The notes below the pieces were generated by a model. That model was not told the DNA's origin, made no database searches, and was given only the letters and a program-made list of their open reading frames with translations. Made by a program: the position numbers and the translations under genes. Below, piece after piece: positions 4,229 through 64,000 of a DNA stretch of 64,000 bases. The stretch is from Escherichia phage saus132. Numbering within the stretch: position 1 is the stretch's first letter; each line of letters starts with the position of its first letter. Where the stretch lies: the sequence record NC_047884.1. One strand, 5' to 3'.

Positions 4229-4721
4229 TACTCCTGTGATTTTCCTGGATATTGATGGGGTACTCAATTCGAGCATCTCTCACCATCATGCTCTAGACAG
4301 TGAAAAGCTGTTCTTTGGCAGTGATTGGGTTTATAAGCCATTACTCCAGGTTTTTCAGAACTTTCTTAAACCCTCCCCAATAATGATTGTTGGGGTCTCT
4401 TCATGGTTTTCTGTACGAAATGAAATGGAGAACGTTCAGATTATGACCGGACTCGGTTTGATCGATCGTTTCCTTGGTACAACAGATTTTACTGGAGGTG
4501 GTTTATATCGGGGTAATTCTGTTTTACGTTTCGTCGAAAAACATAAGCTCAAGCATTGGTGTGTCTTAGACGATGCTGGTGCTATGATGTATCAATTTCC
4601 TACTGTTATTGTAAATGGCAGGACTGGAGTAAACCTTCAAGATTTAAATGCTATAAGCTATATGCTGGAATTTAGTCCAGATCTTGAAATGTGTAAGGCT
4701 CTTCAGAAACTTAAGGTATAA
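4206..4721 (+). CDS. HAD-superfamily phosphatase-like protein (start uncertain)
   Basis: N-terminal FLDIDGVLN (DxDGx motif I), later VLDD motif. Confidence 0.5.
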   Translation: MLLVEISNTPVIFLDIDGVLNSSISHHHALDSEKLFFGSDWVYKPLLQVFQNFLKPSPIMIVGVSSWFSVRNEMENVQIMTGLGLIDRFLGTTDFTGGGLYRGNSVLRFVEKHKLKHWCVLDDAGAMMYQFPTVIVNGRTGVNLQDLNAISYMLEFSPDLEMCKALQKLKV

Positions 4722-4723
4722 GC

Positions 4724-5152
4724 ATGTTCAATAATATTTTCATGAAAGAGGTAAATCCTATGCTCCTCAACTTCTGGCGTTCTCTCCCTAATGGTATGTA
4801 TAATGAAACCATCAATCTGCTTAAGATTTGGTGTGAGAATAATGATATCTTCTTATCCTTTAAAGGCCCACTAGAGGAAGCTCCATGTATTGGAGTTAGT
4901 GTGGATTTAGGTGAGGGAGTAGAAGAGATTGTAGACTGGAAAGAACTCGATGAAATGGGTCTGGTTTTTGCCTTAAATCATAAGCTGTTTATGCCTGCAA
5001 ATCACCGTCTTATTGTAAATTATCGCACTGGTGAAGCTCCTGCTTTCCAGGTAAATGAACGTGAGGGCTGGTCATATTCGCCCGAGGAAGTAAATGAGGG
5101 GATTCAGAAACTTCGTCGTTTCGGGTATATGATCCCAGGTTTAACTGCTTAA
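4724..5152 (+). CDS. Hypothetical protein, paralog A of a tandem pair
   Basis: Shares MGLVFALN...P...TGE...PGL pattern with the next ORF. Confidence 0.6.
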   Translation: MFNNIFMKEVNPMLLNFWRSLPNGMYNETINLLKIWCENNDIFLSFKGPLEEAPCIGVSVDLGEGVEEIVDWKELDEMGLVFALNHKLFMPANHRLIVNYRTGEAPAFQVNEREGWSYSPEEVNEGIQKLRRFGYMIPGLTA

Positions 5153-5161
5153 GGAGGCAGA

Positions 5162-5557
5162 ATGGAACAAGTATTTTGGCGTCAGATAGATCCTAGTTTG
5201 GTAGAGCGTGCTGAGGGGCTCCTTGCACGTTGGTTGGGGGTTGACAAGGTTAGTGTAACATTTCCGTTTACTTCTGTAACAGACCCTAGTGTAGGTGTCT
5301 TTGTGGACGAAGATGAAGATGATGGTTGGGAAGCTGACTGGAATGAATTGTCCAGTATGGGCTTGATTGTTGCCCTCAACTTCTCTATATTCCATCCACG
5401 TGGCTTAGCCATTACACGTGACCCCGAAACTGGTGAATCCCCTTATCTTTTGCAAGTAGAAGATGATATTTGGGAGTACACCGAAGATATTCTCGAAGAA
5501 GCTAAAGGTCAATTAAATCGCATTGGGATCTATGTTCCAGGCCTAAATGATGATTGA
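5162..5557 (+). CDS. Hypothetical protein, paralog B of a tandem pair
   Basis: MGLIVALNFSIFHP...TGESPY...VPGL aligns with the preceding ORF. Confidence 0.6.
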   Translation: MEQVFWRQIDPSLVERAEGLLARWLGVDKVSVTFPFTSVTDPSVGVFVDEDEDDGWEADWNELSSMGLIVALNFSIFHPRGLAITRDPETGESPYLLQVEDDIWEYTEDILEEAKGQLNRIGIYVPGLNDD

Positions 5558-5648
5558 TTTTCATTAGTCCAATCCTGATTACCGAGTCATTTTGGCTCGG
5601 TTTTCTCTGTGCTCAAAGACACTGATAGCACCTTCGGAAAAATTTTAC

Positions 5649-5678
5649 TTGCAGGATGCTCAAAATCTTGATATAATA
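5649..5678 (+). promoter_or_regulatory. Early promoter with extended -10
   Basis: TTGCAG, 18 bp spacer, TGaTATAAT, followed by conserved ATTTATATTGAATTGAGAGA downstream block. Confidence 0.5.
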
Positions 5679-6173
5679 TTTATATTGAATTGAGAGACAT
5701 TAGTAAAAATTGATTTTGCTAATTTTTCTTGTTTACAATCCGCAATACGGAACAGTTAGGCTGCCCCATTAAGGGTTGTTTTAACTATTACTAGTGTTTA
5801 TACTGCATTAGTTAATTATCAATTAAGTGATCTGCGTACCCTGAATTCGGAAAGGTAAATCCAAACCGTGCATATTTAGCTCGTTATATAGGCAGAGCTT
5901 TATATGGGGGTGCGAACGAAAAGAGCAGCGAATGGTGACACGTCCAGTAGCCACCTACCAATAGGATAGTGAGGGCAATCAGAATCGGCTTAGCGGCCAA
6001 TGACCTAGGTTCTGATCTGGATAAGAGTTAAGAGAGCGCAGCACTGAGGTATGATAACTTATTCATACTGCTTGATGATGATTAATGTTTGTGTAAATGG
6101 TAGTAATAGTTGTTCTATTCTTTTGAATAGTCCTAAAGAAAGATATCCGAATAACCAACATAGGAGTATTGTT

Positions 6174-8963
6174 GTGTTCTCAATCCTACAAGGTCACGCA
6201 GGATTTTCCAGAGATAAAGCCACTGGCATCTGGAAAGAGATCAAAGTGGAAGACTACACCTTTGCAAAGCGATTCTCTAAAGAGCATCCAGAAGGTAAAC
6301 CAGCTTCCATGCCCTTCAAATTTGATGTACTTGAAGAACTTGACCCGCAAAACCTTGCTGAAATGTTACCTATCATGCGTCGTCTTACCAAAGACCCGCA
6401 TATTGTAGCTATTCGTGGTAAATGTTTAGCTCCAAAAGATAATGTGCGTCGTACCAGAGGAAACTTTAATGTATCCAATCCTAGTCATATTATTGCTATG
6501 GACGTGGATGGTATTGTAGATACTGGTGGCTATGACAAGTTTAATCTTGTCGGCATGGCACGTCATATTATTAAGATGTTGAATAGTATTAGTGAGGATA
6601 TGTTTCCTCTTGATGCAGGGTTTATTGCTCATGCATCGTCTTCGGCTGGCTTAAAACCAGGTATCCGAATGCACTTAATGCTAGAATCTAATGTCAAGGT
6701 AACGCAGGGGCAATTAAAATTCCTATTTACATCCATCAATGACAGTAGTAAGCAAAAGTATGGCTTTGATATTGCTGACTTAGCTTATTATTCTTCTGTT
6801 CAGCTTCACTATTTCGCAGATCCCTTATTTGATGATGGTATAGTCGATCCGTTTAAAGCGGAGAATAAACCACGTCTTGTGTATGTTAAGGGTTCGAAAG
6901 TGAATCTACCCAATAACCTAGTTGACTTTGAAACAACTAGAGGTGAGTTTAAAGAAGAATTCTACTCCTTACTTGACCAAATTAAAGGCAAGAAGGCTGC
7001 ATCTGATAAAGTGGAAGAAACCATCAGCGAACTAGAAGAAGCTGAGGATGGGGTGTACCTGCGTATTATCCCAAAACTTTATCACAGAGCGTTAGAAGAT
7101 GGTGTTGACTTTACGTGGTTAGAACGTGAGATTAAACCAGCTTTATCTGAGTATATTGCGACTAAAGATAATAGTCGTAATATTCAAGATTACTTTAATA
7201 ACGGTCGTAAGCAGGCTCTCAAAGCCTTTGTAAATAACTCCAAACGTGAGATTCCACCAAACTTAAAAGGTGTACCATTAAAACGTCTAGACACAGATTC
7301 TCCACCAGAAGTTCCATACCTGAAAATTAACATTGTACCACCAAAAGGACATTTAACATTTGTTAAGGCAAGTCTTGGTACGGGTAAAACTACAGCAGTA
7401 ACTAAGTGGCTAGATGCAGGTGTTCTTCCAGGGAACTTTATTGCAATCACAAATACTAGGGCACTTGTATCTTCTAACGCGAAGAAATTCGGTGCTGGCC
7501 AGTATGATAAGTCAGTTGATATGCTGAACTTCAAACGTGGTGCTATTGATCGTATGTCTTCAACTATTCACTCTATCCATAAGTTCAAGAGCTTTGTGGG
7601 TCAGATTGATACGATCTTTATTGATGAATGTGATGCAGTAATGAACGATCTGTTATTCGCTCCGGTTGTTAAAAACCGTCGTGAATGTATTCAGGTTCTT
7701 CGTGATATTCTTATTACTGCAAAAACGGTGATCTTATCTGATGGGGATATCAGTGCAGAAACGATTGAAGCCTATGGTTCTTTGATTGATTTTGATAAAC
7801 CGGTTGCGTTCTATAATCATCACCGTAAAATGCTGGCAAAAGCTCATGCTTATGAATTCCCTGACGAATCCAGTATTTGGGTTGCACTTCAAACATCTCT
7901 AGAGATGGGTGAGAAGTCAATCCTAGTATCTGACTGTGGACCAGATGAACTGAATGAAAAGGGAATGGCATTACGTCGTAATACGGGTGCGTTAGTTAAA
8001 GAAATTCACTCAAACTCTACGTCTGATGTAGATATCCGTCGTATTCTGGATTATACAACTAATGAGCTAATTGATCAACAGATTGATTGTTTGTTATGTA
8101 GTCCATCTGTAACGAGTGGTGTTGACTTTAACTATTTTGATAACGTATTCGTAATCACTAGAACCTCAAACCAAGCGCCAAACATGCGTTTTCAAGCAAT
8201 CAGGCGCGACCGTGGTGCTCAGAACATTTATTATTTTATTGATAAATCTACGAGTGGATTTTCTGCGGGTTCCGAGCAATATAATATTGACGAAGGTTGG
8301 ATTGAGTTAGCCCAACAACTGTACGCACGTCGCCGTGAGCTGGAATCTAGAAACTATACCAGTACTTTGCGTTATTATCTTCTCGATCAAGGTGCAACTA
8401 TCGATATTTTCAGCGAAAGCTGGGGAACTATCGAAGGTGCAGGCAAAGAGTATATAGAAGAGCGAATCAAAGCTATTTTGCACTCAACTCCTGAATATTG
8501 CGCACCACGTCATGCAGACGCCTATGAAGCCAAGTTACTTCTGGTTCGCTATTATCATCTGGATTCTATTAAAGATGTAATAGTGGAACACGTTGAACAG
8601 TATATTAAGGATAAACCAAACGATAGAGCTGCATTCTTCCATAAGATGCACGACATGTTCTGGGAAGATATTAAAAAGTGTTCAAACGTAACAATCAAAC
8701 CGTTTATCGAAGCTCTTAAGAATAAGAAGAAGGATTTCTTCCTTAAGACAGGTCAGAGCGCTAACCCAAAATATGCTCGTATGTATCTTGGCATGATGGG
8801 TATCGGTAAAGATCTGGATACGGAAAAGATTGTGGACTGGTACAGAACTTACTGTAAGATCGAATGTATGCCGATTCCAGTTAAGTTTATGACAGATGAA
8901 GAACGTCAGATGCATGAGGAAGCTCTTGCTGAATTGGGGGCTAGAAATGACAGCGAAGAATAA
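6174..8963 (+). CDS. Putative replication initiator / origin-binding-type helicase-like ATPase
   Basis: Walker A SLGTGKTT, Walker B FIDECD; start placed at GTG 6174 (RBS AGGAG 7 nt upstream) instead of track start 6051. Confidence 0.6.
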   Translation: MFSILQGHAGFSRDKATGIWKEIKVEDYTFAKRFSKEHPEGKPASMPFKFDVLEELDPQNLAEMLPIMRRLTKDPHIVAIRGKCLAPKDNVRRTRGNFNVSNPSHIIAMDVDGIVDTGGYDKFNLVGMARHIIKMLNSISEDMFPLDAGFIAHASSSAGLKPGIRMHLMLESNVKVTQGQLKFLFTSINDSSKQKYGFDIADLAYYSSVQLHYFADPLFDDGIVDPFKAENKPRLVYVKGSKVNLPNNLVDFETTRGEFKEEFYSLLDQIKGKKAASDKVEETISELEEAEDGVYLRIIPKLYHRALEDGVDFTWLEREIKPALSEYIATKDNSRNIQDYFNNGRKQALKAFVNNSKREIPPNLKGVPLKRLDTDSPPEVPYLKINIVPPKGHLTFVKASLGTGKTTAVTKWLDAGVLPGNFIAITNTRALVSSNAKKFGAGQYDKSVDMLNFKRGAIDRMSSTIHSIHKFKSFVGQIDTIFIDECDAVMNDLLFAPVVKNRRECIQVLRDILITAKTVILSDGDISAETIEAYGSLIDFDKPVAFYNHHRKMLAKAHAYEFPDESSIWVALQTSLEMGEKSILVSDCGPDELNEKGMALRRNTGALVKEIHSNSTSDVDIRRILDYTTNELIDQQIDCLLCSPSVTSGVDFNYFDNVFVITRTSNQAPNMRFQAIRRDRGAQNIYYFIDKSTSGFSAGSEQYNIDEGWIELAQQLYARRRELESRNYTSTLRYYLLDQGATIDIFSESWGTIEGAGKEYIEERIKAILHSTPEYCAPRHADAYEAKLLLVRYYHLDSIKDVIVEHVEQYIKDKPNDRAAFFHKMHDMFWEDIKKCSNVTIKPFIEALKNKKKDFFLKTGQSANPKYARMYLGMMGIGKDLDTEKIVDWYRTYCKIECMPIPVKFMTDEERQMHEEALAELGARNDSEE

Positions 8964-9248: not shown

Positions 9249-9953
9249 ATGGCTGGTTCTCGTAGAAAGAAACTTATCCATGAAATCCCTGATGAAACCT
9301 TTAAAAAGGTTATTGAACATCTAGAGAATGGTGGTACTAAGAAAGCAGCATGTGAAATGCTCGGCGTTTCTTCTAACCCAACTATGGAACGAATGATCGA
9401 GGAATGGAGAGATCGTCAGGTTCAAGTTGCGGAAATGAAAAAGAAGAAGCGCGGAACACTGATTGAAGGTGTTGAGCTTGCAAACGTAATTGAACAGTAT
9501 CTTTCTGGTGATTCTTTTGAAGAAATCGCTGATCGTAATTATCGTTCTGTAGCGATGATTAAATCTGTTCTAGAACGTTACGGTGCTCTGCTTCGTTTAA
9601 ATGATACTGTTGATCCATTGAATCCTCCATTGATTCCTGATGATGCAATGGCAGAGGAATTTGAAGTTGGTGAACTTGTTTGGGTTCCTGGCTATCAGTG
9701 TATTGGTGAAATCAAGAAAGCAATGACTAACCCAGTTGGTTGCTATCGTGTTTGGTTGTTATCAGAAGGTAAACAACAGAACGTTCACTATATGCACTAC
9801 GAATTAGCTTCTGTTAAACATCTGGAAAAGCTGGGAGTTGATGTTAAAGCTCTTGGCTTTAAATGGAGCCGTGAAGAAGTTATCACGTTGGTTAATGAAG
9901 CTGTTAAAGCTGCACTGAAACTCGATAAAGAGAAAGGAAAACGCCGTGAGTAA
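9249..9953 (+). CDS. Putative DNA-binding protein (N-terminal HTH)
   Basis: GGTKKAACEMLGVSSNPTMERMIEEW helix-turn-helix-like segment; directly downstream of PN25-like promoter. Confidence 0.55.
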   Translation: MAGSRRKKLIHEIPDETFKKVIEHLENGGTKKAACEMLGVSSNPTMERMIEEWRDRQVQVAEMKKKKRGTLIEGVELANVIEQYLSGDSFEEIADRNYRSVAMIKSVLERYGALLRLNDTVDPLNPPLIPDDAMAEEFEVGELVWVPGYQCIGEIKKAMTNPVGCYRVWLLSEGKQQNVHYMHYELASVKHLEKLGVDVKALGFKWSREEVITLVNEAVKAALKLDKEKGKRRE

Positions 9954-60257: not shown

Positions 60258-60749
60258 TTGAGATCCTCCAAAGCATATAAACCATCCCCATCATTGCAGA
60301 TTATTACCGCTTCCGAATGATTAGCATAGTATTCATTTGCAGTCTTTACCCATTGTTCGATTTTTTCGATAGTGTCGTGGGTAGCTGGATGATCGTTAAA
60401 TATTATTGTCATATCGTCGATTCCTTATAATGTATAAGTTTACCGCCGATAGGCTTTAAGATGTTCCCTAGTTTTTAAAGAGCATGGCGGTAAACTTCCC
60501 CGCCGTGTAGTTCGTCATTGCCGCCCTACGTGATAAATATTAGGGGAATACCGAAAAGGGCGCAACCATATTTTTGTAAAGAAACGTAAAGACAAACGCC
60601 ACCGCACCACGTCCAGCGGCGCACTAAATTTAATGAAACGGGCGCGCGAATAACACCAAAACAACCATTTTAGCAAGTAATTTTTTCATTTATATCTGCT
60701 CTAGGGTACTTGACAAAATCTAAAATCCTCGTGGTGAGGTTTTCTCGGT

Positions 60750-60830
60750 GTGCCCCTTATGGTTGCCTATCTTTTCCTTTGAGGCGCTTAGAATGCGTTA
60801 CAGAGCGTTTTAGACCCTGTTAATAACTTA
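60750..60830 (+). repeat. Direct repeat copy 1 (core TTAGAATGCGTTACAGAGCGTTTTAGA)
   Basis: 27-bp core at 60786-60812 identical to 63363-63389, degenerate similarity on both flanks. Confidence 0.85.
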
Positions 60831-60859
60831 TACAAAAAGCAAAAATGAAATTTAATGAG

Positions 60860-61201
60860 TTATCCACTTGATTTTTCAAAAAAGTATTTTCTGCTATTAT
60901 TTTTCATTGACAAATAAGTTTAGACGTGCATTGATTGGTTAGCAGACTAACAATCGCTAGGATGATAATCACGCTGGTGGATTGTAACAGCTGAAACAGT
61001 TAGCAGACTATTAATACTCTAAAAACCTATTAGCCAACTAACTATTTCATATTATATAATATACTTATAAATTAAAGAGAAATAATAACTATAAGAAACT
61101 ATCGGCTAAGTGAGAACCACTATCATTTAGGTTATTCACAAAGTTATCCACAGCACAAAATAACTTGACGCAATAGGCGACGTTTTGGCGACTTATCCAC
61201 A
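60860..61201. promoter_or_regulatory. Cluster of DnaA-box-like 9-mers
   Basis: TTATCCACT at 60860; TTATCCACA at 61144 and 61193; weaker GGTGGATTG at 60976. Confidence 0.6.
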
Positions 61202-61247
61202 GACTTATATACAGGTTATCCTACTGTATAAATATACAGGGTAGAAT
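61192..61247. repeat. Left arm of long inverted repeat (contains DnaA box and palindrome CTGTATAAATATACAG)
   Basis: About 90 percent identical to reverse complement of 63418-63472. Confidence 0.85.
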
Positions 61248-61519
61248 GGTAGCAGTAACAACCGCAATCAAATTTAAGCGGCCTAGAACACGCTATACGG
61301 CGTTTTCTCACTGCTACCCTTATTATAATAAAGCCTTGTGTACGCTTACAGAGAACTAGAAATAGAAAACGCGCGGCAATGGAAGCGGCAATGTTGGAAA
61401 TGGTACAAAGTTTCAATATTGCTGAAATGATCGATGAAATGGTAAAAGGTATTGACATTTCAACCTTTACCCAAAATGCTGAAAGCGAGTAATAATTAGT
61501 CTAATGTAAAGTTTTGTAA

Positions 61520-61546
61520 AGGTCGCCCTAATCGGCGGCCTTTTTT
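61520..61546 (+). terminator. Terminator-like hairpin
   Basis: GGTCGCC-ctaatc-GGCGGCC followed by TTTTTT. Confidence 0.45.
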
Positions 61547-61548
61547 GT

Positions 61549-61554
61549 TATAAT
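61549..61554 (+). promoter_or_regulatory. Extended -10 promoter element
   Basis: TGtTATAAT followed by RBS TAGGAGG and ATG 61612. Confidence 0.4.
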
Positions 61555-61611
61555 GCCTTTACACCGAAACGGTGGATTGAAAATTTTCCCCTGATTTCTA
61601 GGAGGCGTTAA

Positions 61612-61839
61612 ATGGTACATTCATCATCTTCTGCAATTTTTAACGGTATGGAATGGGTATCCGTTCCCGCTATTGTCAGCGTTATGGTTTCTGAGTTCGG
61701 CATAGGTAAAACTTATGTTACCATTCAGGGGCTTTACGACAATGACAAGATTGACCAGCAAACCGCCGGATTTTTGCTGGATGAATTGAAAGCTAACCAT
61801 TGCACTAAAAAGCAAGCGGCAAAAATTGTTTTAATGTAA
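61612..61839 (+). CDS. Hypothetical small protein
   Basis: RBS context ATTTCTAGGAGG. Confidence 0.55.
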   Translation: MVHSSSSAIFNGMEWVSVPAIVSVMVSEFGIGKTYVTIQGLYDNDKIDQQTAGFLLDELKANHCTKKQAAKIVLM

Positions 61840-61885
61840 TTATTAAAGGGGATATATTATCCCCTAATTTCTAGGAGCTAATAAA

Positions 61886-62035
61886 ATGGTTATTTTTCGA
61901 TCTATTCTGGCTAGTATCTTGGGCGCTATTTTATCGTTGTTTGCAATAGCTTTCGGTGTTCATGCCGTTATTATCGGAGCAGGTATCGCGGGGTTTTCTT
62001 ACTTGTTAGGCTGTATGACTGGTAAAGGGGAATAA
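61886..62035 (+). CDS. Small membrane peptide (49 aa, below ORF-track size cutoff)
   Basis: RBS context ATTTCTAGGAG; hydrophobic ILASILGAILSLFAIAFGVHAVIIGAGIAGF. Confidence 0.4.
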   Translation: MVIFRSILASILGAILSLFAIAFGVHAVIIGAGIAGFSYLLGCMTGKGE

Positions 62036-62037
62036 AA

Positions 62038-62250
62038 ATGTTAAAGAATGTTTCCCTTGCCCGTTCCAAAGGTTTTAAGCTGGTGGATGTTAACACGTTC
62101 GAGCGTCCAGATTGTAAAATTGAATATGTAGCACGCAACAAAAACGCTTTCCGTGTCACTGAAAAGAAATTTGACAAGCGCGGCAATTTGGTAGCCGAAA
62201 CGGTTAAACACTTTGCCACTTTTTACGCTGCATTTCGTGGGGTATTATGA
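62038..62250 (+). CDS. Hypothetical small protein
   Basis: ORF in tightly packed operon. Confidence 0.5.
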   Translation: MLKNVSLARSKGFKLVDVNTFERPDCKIEYVARNKNAFRVTEKKFDKRGNLVAETVKHFATFYAAFRGVL

Positions 62251-62387
62251 AAACTTTATTTTCTATTTTGCTCGGTGCTGCTGGTGGCTTTATTGCTACC
62301 TGCTTTAAAAGTGATCCTGCACTGTTAGGCGTTTATTCGATTTGTTTTGGCTATTTGCTAGGGAGGCTGGCAGATGGTTATTTATGA
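62247..62387 (+). CDS. Small membrane peptide (46 aa, below ORF-track size cutoff)
   Basis: MKTLFSILLGAAGGFIATCF...; start overlaps upstream stop. Confidence 0.35.
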   Translation: MKTLFSILLGAAGGFIATCFKSDPALLGVYSICFGYLLGRLADGYL

Positions 62388-62718
62388 GGGCAATCGCTTT
62401 GTTACTAATTGCCGTCCGGCATTATTAGCAAACTATTTAAACCAGCTTTCACCAGTTTATAAAGGCGTAATTAATATCTATGAGGGCAAAGCACATTATA
62501 AGATTAATGCCATTGTTGCCCGTGAACTAGCGTTTCAATTTTTAACTTTTGGATCTTGTGACGTTCAGGTTATGGGGGAAGCGTTAATAGCAGAAAATGA
62601 AAATGAATTTATCGACATTTTCCGCAAAGTATGTACAGAGCGCCTGATTATGAAAGGCGCGTATATTCAATCAACCGCTGAAAGTATAGAAACAGCGTTT
62701 CGAAAGGTGGCGCAATGA
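62374..62718 (+). CDS. Hypothetical protein
   Basis: ORF in operon. Confidence 0.55.
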   Translation: MVIYEGNRFVTNCRPALLANYLNQLSPVYKGVINIYEGKAHYKINAIVARELAFQFLTFGSCDVQVMGEALIAENENEFIDIFRKVCTERLIMKGAYIQSTAESIETAFRKVAQ

Positions 62719-62912
62719 CTAAAGATGAAGCACTAGAAAAAATGAAACAAGGTTTCAAAGTTCGTCAAGAATACTTCACTAGTGAGGAATTTTTGTACAT
62801 GAAAAATGGCGTGATCATGTCAGAAGATGGATATACTTTTAATGACTGGTTTTTCAAGATTACCCCTGCTACACGTTGGAAGCTAGACGGTTGGAGCGTC
62901 TACCGTGAATAG
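62715..62912 (+). CDS. Hypothetical small protein
   Basis: ORF overlapping upstream stop (ATGA). Confidence 0.5.
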   Translation: MTKDEALEKMKQGFKVRQEYFTSEEFLYMKNGVIMSEDGYTFNDWFFKITPATRWKLDGWSVYRE

Positions 62913-63035
62913 CTGGTGGCGAAAAACACAAAGCCATAAATCTAATAATACCGCTGGGAAACATTCCCAGCGTTTACGATTTAGTAGCGGGCTTGTAATG
63001 GTAATAATAATCATTCTCATTCTAGGAGCGATGGC

Positions 63036-63275
63036 ATGGCTGTAAGAATTTTACGATATGTGGAACGTAAAGAAACCGATATTATGCAACATCATTTAAC
63101 TGATGCGCAATACGCGCAATTTTTAGAAATGCAGAAAAGCGGAGCTGATACGGCAACGCTAGGAGCGTGGATCAACTCAGTTTCAACGTGTACGCATTTT
63201 GATTCATACGGGTATACGCCAGCCGAAACCGTCCAGATCTTTGATGACTACGAGAAAGAATACATAGCAGACTAA
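63036..63275 (+). CDS. Hypothetical small protein
   Basis: RBS TCTAGGAGCGATGGC-ATG; followed by terminator. Confidence 0.55.
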   Translation: MAVRILRYVERKETDIMQHHLTDAQYAQFLEMQKSGADTATLGAWINSVSTCTHFDSYGYTPAETVQIFDDYEKEYIAD

Positions 63276-63281
63276 TAATAA

Positions 63282-63309
63282 CGGGGCGCAACTATCGGCC
63301 CCGCTTTTT
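63282..63309 (+). terminator. Rho-independent terminator
   Basis: CGGGGC-gcaactatcg-GCCCCG followed by CTTTTT. Confidence 0.6.
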
Positions 63310-63324
63310 CTGGCCTTCCTCAAA

Positions 63325-63405
63325 TTTCCCCTTATTAAAATACCTCCTCCAAAAATAAACGCGTTAGAATGCGTTACAGAGCGTTTTAGAGCTATATTAG
63401 AGTTA
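63325..63405 (+). repeat. Direct repeat copy 2 (core TTAGAATGCGTTACAGAGCGTTTTAGA)
   Basis: 27-bp core at 63363-63389 identical to 60786-60812. Confidence 0.85.
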
Positions 63406-63417
63406 TTCACTACGCAG

Positions 63418-63472
63418 GAATACTGTATAAATATACAGTAGAATAACCTGTTGATAAGTCTGTGGATAACGC
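63418..63472. repeat. Right arm of long inverted repeat (contains DnaA box TGTGGATAA and palindrome)
   Basis: Reverse complement matches 61192-61247 at about 90 percent; further GGTGGATAA at 63522. Confidence 0.85.
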
Positions 63473-63562
63473 CTCAAAATCGCTAGGATTTTGTCAAGTC
63501 AAATCGTGCTGTTAATAAACCGGTGGATAACTTAAATAACAGTGTTTCTCACTTCGCTTTGT

Positions 63563-63706
63563 AAATGCGAGTCACTCTCATTATCATTCGCGTTTCCCTT
63601 CCTAAATGCAAATCATTCTCATTCGTATTCCGGTAGTCAAATGATAACTATTCTCATTCGCATTCAACTTCTCAAATGCGAATCAATCTCATTATCATTT
63701 GCATTT
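63563..63706 (+). repeat. Iteron array 1: four tandem ~36-bp units each containing an inverted pair AAATGCGAAT...ATTCGCATTT
   Basis: Units start at 63563, 63604, 63639, 63674. Confidence 0.8.
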
Positions 63707-63743
63707 CGGCAGGCAGGGCATTTTCTATTTGCCCTGCGCTTTT

Positions 63744-63966
63744 GTGCAAATCCGACATTTGCCCCCACGGATTACGTGCCAGCGTGCATGTGCGAATCCG
63801 ACAATTTTTGGTAGTGTGCAAATCCGATGGCAAATATTTTTTATATGTGCGAATCCGACAATGAATTTTCCTAAAAACTCCAGCAATCCGCAACTGCGAT
63901 GCAATCCAGCTGGGTTTACTAGAGTATGTGCAAATTCGACAAGTGTTAAGGTGTGCGAATCCGACA
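63744..63966 (+). repeat. Iteron array 2: six same-orientation copies of GTGCRAATYCGAYR (array may continue beyond window)
   Basis: Copies at 63744, 63790, 63816, 63847, 63929, 63953; shares core TGCGAATC with array 1; perfect hairpin GCAGGGC/GCCCTGC at 63713-63737 between arrays. Confidence 0.8.
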
Positions 63967-64000
63967 AGATTTTTGTGACTTCGATGAGAGGGTGTGTGAT

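Follow-up and report, generated by a model that had tools for sequence, protein, structure and literature searches.

Genes and Features of the Terminal Repeat Locus

Two inverted arms flank a block of small genes in a 64,000-nucleotide stretch of DNA (hereafter the window) from Escherichia phage saus132 (NC_047884.1), which its sequence places among the T5-like phages (Demerecviridae, Epseptimavirus). The genes dmp, A1, and A2 lie upstream of the repeats, and the location is the long terminal repeat, with A1/A2 between the repeats and the genome end; positions 60700-64000 are 100% identical to the terminal repeat of chee130_1 (Epseptimavirus). The arms enclose the variable, rightward-transcribed pre-early genes of this terminal repeat, and the following features were assigned:

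61105-61239, no strand: left arm (T5 IRC-spacer-IRD, Repeat Region 2), from repeat search, local alignment, blastn, and T5 alignment
61379-61492, plus strand: 37-aa ORF, C-terminal remnant of a DUF7566 gene (T5 gene 011 family), from its PHROG match
61518-61554, plus strand: terminator-like hairpin (terminator scan) followed by an extended -10-like element (read from the sequence)
61612-63275, plus strand: seven small pre-early ORFs, from the ORF list and PHROG
63283-63311, plus strand: GC-rich hairpin and T run, GGGGCGCAACTATCGGCCCCGCTTTTT, read from the sequence
63423-63557, no strand: right arm (T5 IRD'-spacer-IRC', start of Repeat Region 3), from the same four sources as the left arm
63546-63972, no strand: direct repeats just outside the right arm, from repeat search, T5 direct repeats C and D, and Davison

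A first-pass annotation, made from the letters alone, had counted seven small ORFs between the arms, which is approximately right: eight plus-strand ORFs match PHROG families, one of them solely as a C-terminal remnant. The match of this remnant (61379-61492) spans only positions 298-334 of a 334-residue profile, and its product is identical to the C-terminus of S114 orf151; the 5' part of the gene 011-family member, together with the region upstream, is deleted in saus132. Each of the seven pre-early ORFs (61612-61839, 61886-62035, 62038-62250, 62247-62387, 62374-62718, 62715-62912, and 63036-63275) matches a T5-like PHROG family with E values of 1e-29 to 1e-64, the third belonging to the T5.015-type family.

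Two hairpins accompany these genes. The first (61518-61543) is followed by a T run and by TGTTATAAT at 61546-61554, an arrangement that matches the position of an annotated T5 terminator and the putative promoter T5P5, and promoter activity is predicted here by that correspondence. The second (63283-63311) is probably the terminator of the plus-strand operon, as its position matches T5 palindrome C and the terminator there; it is absent from the list returned by the terminator scan, which had a loop limit of 8 nt.

Correspondence to the T5 Repeat Regions

Alignment to T5 identifies the arms as the IRC-spacer-IRD and IRD'-spacer-IRC' inverted repeats of the T5-like first-step-transfer terminal repeat. 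Positions 61000-61252 align with 1444-1665 of the T5 locus (IRC/IRD), an alignment that is very unlikely to be spurious, and positions 63299-63582 align with 4709-4992 (palindrome D, IRD', and IRC'). In T5, the former element is designated Repeat Region 2 and the latter Repeat Region 3, a candidate for the injection stop signal (AY587007, Wang et al. 2005). The pair itself is nothing new, being already known from T5-like phages: a 131-bp repeat pair with eight DnaA or DnaA-variant boxes, arranged in four pairs with 3 bp between members, was described in 25 T5-like phages including chee130_1 (Davison 2020, bioRxiv 10.1101/866236). The saus132 and T5 elements share direct sequence homology, a position downstream of A1/A2 and flanking rightward pre-early ORFs, arms of ~131-135 nt, four pairs of DnaA-type boxes spaced 3 bp apart, and palindrome D. 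They are structurally the same element with no structural difference, and differ in the length of the cassette, 2.2 kb in saus132 against 3.2 kb in T5, the former having lost most of gene 011.

The right arm begins a non-coding repeat region that is thought to hold the injection stop signal. Beyond it, two direct-repeat arrays, one of ~51-nt units at 63546-63707 and one of five TGTGCGAATCCGACA units at 63743-63972, are recognizable as the remainder of the T5-type iss repeat region (DRE/DRC/DRD). To the known repeat pair, the present analysis would add two elements: a LexA-like box at the inner tip of each arm and a mirrored gene block in Sugarlandvirus and My1.

Extent, Conservation, and Folding of the Arms

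The repeat search returned arms of 135 nt that are 75% complementary, with identical ends obtained from gapped local alignment, and blastn against the whole window aligned one arm with the other over 137 nt at 75.9% identity (E = 1.5e-21). The repeats of about 55 bp first reported at this place are thus real, although understated in length. Their identity of about 90% holds for the best-conserved inner part, where 42/47 positions (89%) of 61193-61239 agree with the right arm read as its reverse complement, compared with 26/47 for the next-best minus-strand match of this 47-mer elsewhere in the window; since similarity ceases past 61239, the inner ends originally set at 61247 and 63418 overshoot by a few bases. 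Three smaller observations were reproduced: the 16/16 identity between the arms across TTATCCACAGACTTAT, the near-palindrome CTGTATAAATATACAG in each arm (61224-61239 and 63423-63438), and a consensus DnaA box, TTATCCACA, in each (61193-61201 on the plus strand and 63461-63469 on the minus strand).

Both arms are retained in every related locus that spans the region, always inverted and separated by 1.6 to 5.4 kb. Core arm motifs are at least 95% conserved across 68 arms from 34 genomes, and there are further conserved motifs that have no known host partner, such as CTTAAAT..AGTGTTTCTCAC. Selection appears to act on these non-coding arms. Among T5/Eps7-type loci the right arm is 89-97% identical, whereas an arm and its partner in the same phage share only 72-82%; the closer resemblance to counterparts in other phages argues against recent duplication or homogenization. 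Host and plasmid origins were also considered, and the right arm had 0 matches in 5,426 E. coli genomes and the region 0 matches in 72,556 plasmids.

Reviews suggest that the repeats and palindromes of this region may form secondary structures that block transfer, and arms complementary over ~135 nt would suit a model in which hairpins, cruciforms, or long-range pairing jam translocation without proteins. We consider this model very improbable. DNA enters the cell double-stranded, 2.2 kb separate the arms here (1.6-5.4 kb in relatives), and their single-strand folding is unremarkable, lying within about 2 sd of shuffled sequence (z of -2.1 and -1.5), with a hairpin at the box of only -3.3 to -4.9 kcal/mol. 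Conservation sits in protein-type motifs rather than in compensatory pairs, and the complementarity between the arms (~76%) falls below the identity of the right arm between phages. No Rfam family matched at E values up to 0.1 within 60400-64000.

DnaA-Type Boxes

Of five TTWTNCACA matches in the window, four fall within the arms. Together with one-mismatch variants, they make up eight DnaA-type boxes, four consensus and four variant, in four pairs with 3 bp between members (starts at 61132/61144, 61193/61205, 63449/63461, and 63510/63522), following the pairing rule described by Davison:

61132-61152, plus strand: outer pair of the left arm, TTATTCACA, AAG, TTATCCACA, with consensus matches at 61132 and 61144
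61193-61213, plus strand: inner pair of the left arm, TTATCCACA, GAC, TTATATACA, the first from the consensus search and the second a variant read from the sequence
63449-63469, minus strand: inner pair of the right arm, reading TGTTGATAA, GTC, TGTGGATAA on the plus strand (variant and consensus)
63510-63530, minus strand: outer pair of the right arm, reading TGTTAATAA, ACC, GGTGGATAA on the plus strand (both variants)

A third TTATCC unit, read from the sequence at 61216-61224, overlaps the left SOS-like box described below.

The chromosomal elements oriC, datA, and DARS are clusters of DnaA boxes. Like them, the arms hold several TTATNCACA-type 9-mers that are phased, 11-12 bp from center to center, with consensus and one-mismatch boxes mixed; unlike them, the arms have no detectable similarity to any E. 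coli chromosome. This analogy was drawn by Davison, in whose work a role for DnaA at T5-type arms is a hypothesis. The replication origins of T5 lie elsewhere in the genome, and its replication genes are still outside the cell at this stage.

LexA-Like Boxes at the Arm Tips

A search for CTGT-N8-ACAG located one palindrome at the inner tip of each arm:

61222-61241, no strand: left SOS (LexA)-like box, TACTGTATAAATATACAGGG, inner tip of the left arm
63421-63440, no strand: right SOS (LexA)-like box, TACTGTATAAATATACAGTA, inner tip of the right arm, corresponding to T5 "palindrome D"

By motif, these are consensus-grade LexA SOS boxes. The right box agrees with the 20-nt LexA consensus at 19/20 positions, with one mismatch. 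Scored with an uncurated matrix of 26 E. coli SOS boxes, the right box (heterology index 0.79) and the left box (3.63) are the two best sites in the 64 kb; the next-best site of the window reaches 8.11, and the 26 E. coli boxes have a median of 5.47. Published descriptions of T5-type repeats leave LexA and SOS unmentioned, and no LexA or SOS reading of the T5 palindrome was found in the searchable literature, a scope outside which the 1987 and 2015 primary descriptions fall.

Several mobile elements have co-opted LexA, among them colicin operons and the phages CTXphi, 186, and GIL01. As in such LexA operators, the saus132 boxes are 16-nt CTGT-N8-ACAG palindromes with an AT-rich center and TA flanks, two per element, with scores (by the uncurated matrix) equal to or better than those of most chromosomal SOS boxes. 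They differ in that the phage is strictly virulent, that the candidate boxes have no visible promoter overlap, and that each sits at an arm tip of the inverted repeat, 2.2 kb from the other and embedded in an array of DnaA boxes.

The boxes recur across the family. In 608 kb from 38 distinct relatives, 71 sites score below an index of 6; 33 loci have two such sites and 5 have one. Where coordinates were compared in enterobacterial-type genomes, the sites fall at the arm tips. The box is conserved in relatives infecting E. coli, Salmonella, Klebsiella, Serratia, Pectobacterium, Proteus, and Vibrio, always at the inner tips facing the cassette, whichever way the cassette is oriented. Both half-sites, CTGTAT and ATACAG, are conserved and the central 4 nt are variable, a pattern that fits the site of a dimeric protein. 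The left box has decayed to ...ACAA in four Markadamsvirinae genomes and so is not strictly required. An AAAT center that reads the same way in both arms of saus132 and T5 had suggested a direct repeat inside the inverted one; this rule was dropped when all four left/right combinations of AAAT and ATTT were seen across 47 loci.

A dimeric site could also belong to a phage protein. A2 is a dimeric DNA-binding protein that is needed for second-step transfer and is encoded beside the arms in every relative, PalD is among the candidate cleavage palindromes of Davison, and the arms hold the conserved motifs mentioned above that lack a known host partner. The arm motifs might accordingly be sites for A1/A2, with an A2 dimer, with or without A1, restarting transfer or cutting and joining the terminal repeats, as Davison has speculated for the palindromes of the region. 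The hosts of the family are all Gammaproteobacteria with the same LexA and DnaA specificities, so conservation cannot separate a host-protein site from one for a phage protein such as A2. Nevertheless, we judge this assignment improbable: a phage-protein site would resemble the LexA consensus as closely as the right box does only by a remarkable coincidence, and the site is essentially unchanged between phages whose A2 proteins have diverged widely, the box and DnaA module being recognizable in Proteus and Vibrio phages with A2 only 40-45% identical. In addition, the injection stop is reported to be independent of phage protein synthesis, and at least the stop function therefore cannot depend on A2.

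If the boxes do bind LexA, they could serve as paired transcriptional operators, at which LexA, together with DnaA, would act by repression or as a roadblock on transcription coming into the cassette from either side, thereby tying the variable pre-early operon to the SOS or replication state of the host. The consensus-grade boxes face the cassette in both of its orientations, and the mirror symmetry of the arms would preserve such control either way. Outside the left arm, at a distance of 45-150 nt, there is a conserved TATAAT of ambiguous strand, a weak inward-facing TTATCA-16-TATATT overlaps the right box on the minus strand (63457-63430), and the cassette gene of the T5.015 family is annotated as targeting Ung-generated abasic sites, which belong to DNA-damage biology. 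We nonetheless regard operator function as unlikely, if the most serious of the alternatives. The promoter scan (15 hits in total against a shuffle expectation of 11.9) returned no canonical promoter overlapping either box and only the weak site just given over the right one; the left box overlaps no canonical -35/-10. The experimentally characterized promoter of the rightward operon lies inside the cassette, directly upstream of gene 011, and T5 promoter T5P4 is annotated ~180 nt inside the left box (AY587007). Moreover, a tight LexA block would be difficult to reconcile with the immediate expression of pre-early genes in uninduced cells.

Orientation of the Enclosed Cassette

The Mu G segment and the P1 C segment are inverted by the Gin and Cin invertases. 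The saus132 cassette resembles them in that inverted repeats surround a multigene block of a few kilobases and in that such a block occurs in both orientations among related phages: relative to T5/Eps7-type genomes, the homologous gene block is mirrored, on the opposite strand, in Sugarlandvirus (IME260) and Myunavirus (My1). This comparison indicates that the cassette has been inverted at least once in evolution. No relevant report of the Sugarlandvirus inversion was found in the searchable literature, and published accounts describe Type 2 and Type 3 cassettes as replacements by other sequences read oppositely, not as an inversion.

These observations, along with the highly variable gene content between the arms, are what speak for a programmed invertible segment or a mobile cassette with terminal inverted repeats, both of which the first-pass annotation had raised. 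That explanation is already largely refuted, and we assign it next to no probability. Unlike Mu G and P1 C, the cassette comes without an invertase gene, its orientation is fixed within the subfamily, and its arms are four times the length of a gix-type site and packed with host-protein motifs. No recombinase, invertase, integrase, or transposase was found among the ORFs between or beside the arms with PHROG and Pfam. Some 30 Markadamsvirinae genomes share one orientation, and homologue pairs in opposite orientation involve only four Sugarlandvirus loci, so that inversion survives as a claim on the evolutionary scale alone. Mobility does not survive: with both arms in every genome there is no empty site, changes in gene content are internal indels rather than repeat-bounded gains or losses, and the E. 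coli genomes and plasmids searched hold no copies. Nor is there a target-site duplication, since the 8-nt sequences just beyond the two arm ends are different (AACTATCG and TTTGTAAA). That the arms have diverged as paralogues speaks against their frequent recombination with each other. Arm positions that distinguish left from right in T5-type phages were examined for a crossover footprint in the inverted lineages and gave a mixed pattern.

Because the block has its own promoter, inversion does not switch its genes on or off. The inversion result points to the arms, rather than the genes that they enclose, as the constrained unit. A stronger, combined proposition, that the arm-tip palindrome is a genuine high-affinity LexA operator family-wide and that the arms were the substrate of at least one whole-cassette inversion (Sugarlandvirus, Myunavirus), is put forward tentatively, at rather less than even confidence.

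A Proposed Role as Paired Host-Protein Platforms

DNA injection by T5 stops after 8% of the genome and restarts minutes later, a behavior that has gone unexplained for about sixty years and for which the T5-type repeats are the leading cis-acting candidates. The reading that we favor, with somewhat better than even confidence, is that the arms, within the T5-type inverted repeats bracketing the pre-early operon, are paired platforms for the host proteins DnaA and LexA. Each arm would be a docking site for host DNA-binding proteins already present when the DNA enters, with four DnaA-type boxes in two phased pairs and a LexA operator at the inner tip. Two mirror-image nucleoprotein complexes could then organize the first 8% of the genome, or anchor it, while injection is paused, and might also gate transcription into the cassette. 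Among the three roles first suggested for the repeats, that of paired operator sites comes closest, inasmuch as each arm does carry four DnaA-type boxes and a consensus-grade LexA box. To our knowledge, LexA has not been described as anchoring DNA or bridging distant sites. The sequence comparisons show what the element is, which motifs it carries, how it is conserved in the family, and that mobility functions are absent; that DnaA and LexA bind the arms, and contribute there to the injection stop or to pre-early control, is what we infer from motif content.

Were the arm-tip palindrome a genuine LexA operator, a strictly virulent phage would be using the host SOS repressor, together with DnaA, in the complex that pauses its injection or gates its pre-early expression. 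A consensus LexA-type box beside DnaA boxes, from E. coli to Vibrio phages, offers a second concrete host-factor candidate. Knockout screens for host factors of T5 would have overlooked both candidates, as dnaA is essential and a sulA+ background does not tolerate deletion of lexA.

Inverted Repeats Enclosing a Pre-early Gene Cassette

The inverted repeat that the first-pass annotation had placed around a block of small genes, at about 55 bp, proved to be both real and longer, with two 135-nt arms recovered by blastn against the whole window (E = 1.5e-21). The shorter estimate corresponds to the inner portion of the arms, where conservation is highest: 61193-61239 matches the right arm at 42 of 47 positions, while the same 47-mer finds at best 26/47 elsewhere in the window. 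The DnaA box and the palindrome lie at the positions originally reported. The compact plus-strand gene set between the arms likewise stands, but its count of seven ORFs is approximate: eight plus-strand ORFs match PHROG families of T5-like phages.

Features of the repeat region
61105-61239: left arm, 135 nt, 75-76% identical to the right arm with a few small gaps
63423-63557: right arm, 135 nt, partner of the left arm in inverted orientation
61222-61241: left LexA-like box, 20-mer TACTGTATAAATATACAGGG, heterology index 3.63
63421-63440: right LexA-like box, 20-mer TACTGTATAAATATACAGTA, heterology index 0.79, one central position off the 20-nt LexA consensus
61379-61492, plus strand: 37-aa ORF annotated "hypothetical protein", C-terminal remnant of a ~331-aa DUF7566 protein (T5 gene 011 family)
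62715-62912, plus strand: 65-aa ORF on a 184-bp stretch absent from Salmonella phage S114

The repeat was thus correctly observed, but as a structure it has been described before. In the reference record of T5, inverted repeats C and D are annotated at 6022-6060 and 6112-6152 and their counterparts D′ and C′ at 9332-9372 and 9424-9462, while a 20-bp feature at 9330-9349 is labelled "palindrome D"; the window arms align to the C/D and D′/C′ intervals. A preprint by Davison (2020) reported a 131-bp "IRC-spacer-IRD"/"IRD′-spacer-IRC′" pair in 25 T5-like phages, chee130_1 among them, with arm conservation far above that of the intervening ORFs and with eight DnaA or DnaA-variant boxes arranged as four pairs, the members of which are separated by 3 bp. 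Four such pairs are present in the window, and the direct-repeat arrays that follow the right arm also agree with that description. Davison proposed that membrane-bound DnaA grips both arms and thereby stops injection; papers from 2023 and 2026 also present the role of the repeats as a proposal.

Across 60700-64000, the window shares 100% identity with "Bacteriophage T5-like chee130_1" (MF431736; Epseptimavirus, Demerecviridae), there at 5417-8717, and with four sister isolates. In chee130_1, this segment is the end of an annotated 8,717-bp terminal repeat. Given that the record holds a second repeat copy and that ~55 kb of window sequence lies upstream of the repeat, the copy examined here is most likely the right terminal repeat, with base 64000 as the genome end. 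The pre-early genes dmp, A1, and A2 are found on the minus strand to the left of the arms, and the region returned no match when compared with plasmids.

Conservation of the Arms and Inversion of the Cassette

Both arms were found in every related locus spanning the region, always inverted and 1.6-5.4 kb apart. Among T5/Eps7-type loci, right arms are 89-97% identical to the right arm of the window and left arms 79-100% identical to its left arm, whereas left-right identity within a single phage is only 72-82%. This pattern marks the arms as old paralogues, each under its own constraint, rather than ends that were recently duplicated or homogenized. No recombinase or transposase domains were detected in the ORFs between or beside the arms. 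Relative to Salmonella phage S114, the window phage is missing two stretches: one of 986 bp, which takes in the start of the DUF7566 gene with the sequence upstream of it and leaves the 37-aa remnant at 61379-61492, and one of 869 bp carrying two genes. It has also gained 184 bp with one ORF; all of these indels are internal and leave the arms intact. Taken together, the universal, anciently diverged arms, the lack of a recombinase, and the internal indels leave both a mobile cassette, as suggested by the first-pass annotation, and a programmed switch unsupported. The companion suggestion of an invertible segment survives in an evolutionary sense only.

Evidence for such an inversion was obtained from an all-against-all comparison of the ORFs lying between the arms. 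Homologous pairs share the same orientation in 9,405 cases and are opposed in 443, every one of which involves the four Sugarlandvirus loci. With cassette gene families designated by letters, T5/Eps7-type phages and Serratia phage Slocum display the order B> (K>) C> ... A> ... N>, mirrored by A< C< O< B< in IME260 and N< ... C< B< in My1. Minus-strand IME260 gp012 and plus-strand S114 orf151 align over their full lengths at 35% identity (E = 4e-48), and the minus-strand genes My1_019 and My1_018 match B and C genes (E = 7e-38 and 8e-12). The protein homology establishes that at least the core of the IME260/My1 cassette is the same block turned round, so that an inversion took place during evolution. 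The simplest candidate cause is recombination between the arms, for which a crossover-footprint test gave a mixed result. In both lineages, small lineage-specific plus-strand ORFs separate the inverted block from the right arm.

The 65-aa ORF gained in the window phage weakly matches the Pfam Thoeris anti-defence Tad2-like domain, at a score below threshold (18.8 bits where 25 is required; E 0.0025), and is a possible anti-defence gene of the pre-early cassette.

LexA-like Boxes at the Arm Tips

The palindrome at the inner arm tips, CTGTATAAATATACAG, matches CTGT-N8-ACAG and constitutes, as a predicted site, a consensus-grade LexA box. Heterology indices were computed with an approximate matrix derived from 26 E. 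coli SOS boxes, which themselves have a median index of 5.47. The two arm-tip boxes score 3.63 and 0.79, followed at 8.11 by the next-best site of the 64 kb. Across 38 distinct related loci (608 kb), 71 sites fall below 6, with two per locus in 33 and one in 5. Within the 34 enterobacterial-type genomes, those low-index sites whose coordinates were compared fall at the arm tips; in the four single-site loci of this group, the left box has degenerated to ...ACAA. Both T5 arms contain the same 16-mer as the window. The CTGTAT and ATACAG half-sites are retained while the four central bases vary, as expected of a dimer site.

The right-hand module of box and DnaA pair extends to Serratia, Pectobacterium, Klebsiella, Proteus, and Vibrio relatives, and is present in the last two even though their A2 proteins are only 40-45% identical. 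The left-hand layout differs in the Vibrio and Proteus phages: no DnaA-like box occurs within 150 nt of the left-hand boxes of Vibrio phage 234P7B (9830) or Proteus phage 1 (8153). LexA and SOS are not mentioned in Davison's text. A literature search for a T5-LexA link returned nothing relevant; the primary descriptions of 1987, 2005, and 2015 lay outside it, and an earlier report is possible.

In the window and related loci L001-L047, the central four bases read AAAT or, as its reverse complement, ATTT in almost every case, and relatives show each of the four possible left/right combinations. The single-step intermediates ATAT and AATT were absent from the loci examined; either the box inverts as a whole or it tolerates only an A/T tract of three. 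A third TTATCC-type 9-mer (61216-61224), general in the arms, follows the inner DnaA pair with 11-12-bp phasing, giving the left-arm layout TTATCCACA gac TTATATACA gg TTATCCTAC-TGTAT... Since this 9-mer overlaps the outer half of the left SOS box, DnaA and LexA could compete or cooperate there. Vibrio relatives possess three CTGTAT-N4-ATACAG boxes rather than two, with two of the three on the left, around or near a pair of facing DnaA boxes.

CTGTAT-N4-ATACAG boxes in Vibrio relatives
Vibrio phage VCPH (locus L007): 5389, 5511, 8003
Vibrio phage 234P7B (locus L050, reverse complement): 9830, 10507, 13604

Possible Function of the Arms

Mirror-image, strongly conserved motif arrays for two host proteins stand at both ends of a variable pre-early operon, the right array lying just inside the T5 transfer-pause point. 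Both proteins are present ahead of any phage gene expression. DnaA, as proposed by Davison, and LexA, as proposed here, would bind these arrays, and the resulting complexes would anchor or organize the first-step DNA and may restrict transcription across the arms. Rival readings include transcriptional operators, which the first-pass annotation had raised as paired operator sites, as well as sites for A1/A2 and programmed inversion. Retention of the arm DNA while the phage DNA-binding protein A2 falls to 40% identity favors invariant host partners. A conserved phage protein is nonetheless a conceivable partner, as all hosts have the same LexA and DnaA specificities and conservation is unable to separate the two readings; DNA structure alone is an unlikely explanation for the arrays. 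The two additions made here, LexA-consensus boxes and evolutionary inversion of the cassette, are modest, yet they open direct experiments on an old question.

Additional Sequence Elements

A perfect 27-nt direct repeat, TTAGAATGCGTTACAGAGCGTTTTAGA, occurs at 60788-60814, ~300 nt outside the left arm, and at 63364-63390, ~35 nt inside the right arm. A diverged inverted copy is apparently located just inside the left arm, near 61270-61300, and probably corresponds to T5 inverted repeats B and B′. With these copies, the symmetric region is composite and reaches beyond the SOS boxes.

The outer ends of both arms carry CTTAAATRAYAGTGTTTCTCAC (61105-61131, minus strand; 63531-63557, plus strand), which is kept in both arms of nearly all genomes and for which we know of no binding protein; Proteus phage 1 also has AGTGTTTCTCAC in its right arm. 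TTCTCA-type words reappear in the direct repeats beyond the right arm, where five irregularly spaced copies of TGTGCGAATCCGACA, the counterpart of T5 "direct repeat D", span 63743-63972 and extend to the end of the terminal repeat.

Immediately outside the left arm, a promoter-like TAGCCA-18-TATAAT site (10/12; 61031-61060) is kept in T5- and Eps7-type phages and occupies the same place in related loci L002, L003, and L012; T5 has no promoter annotation for it. Between this site and the left arm, loci L006 and L019 contain a variable number of ~15-nt AATAATCACYATWA-type tandem units.
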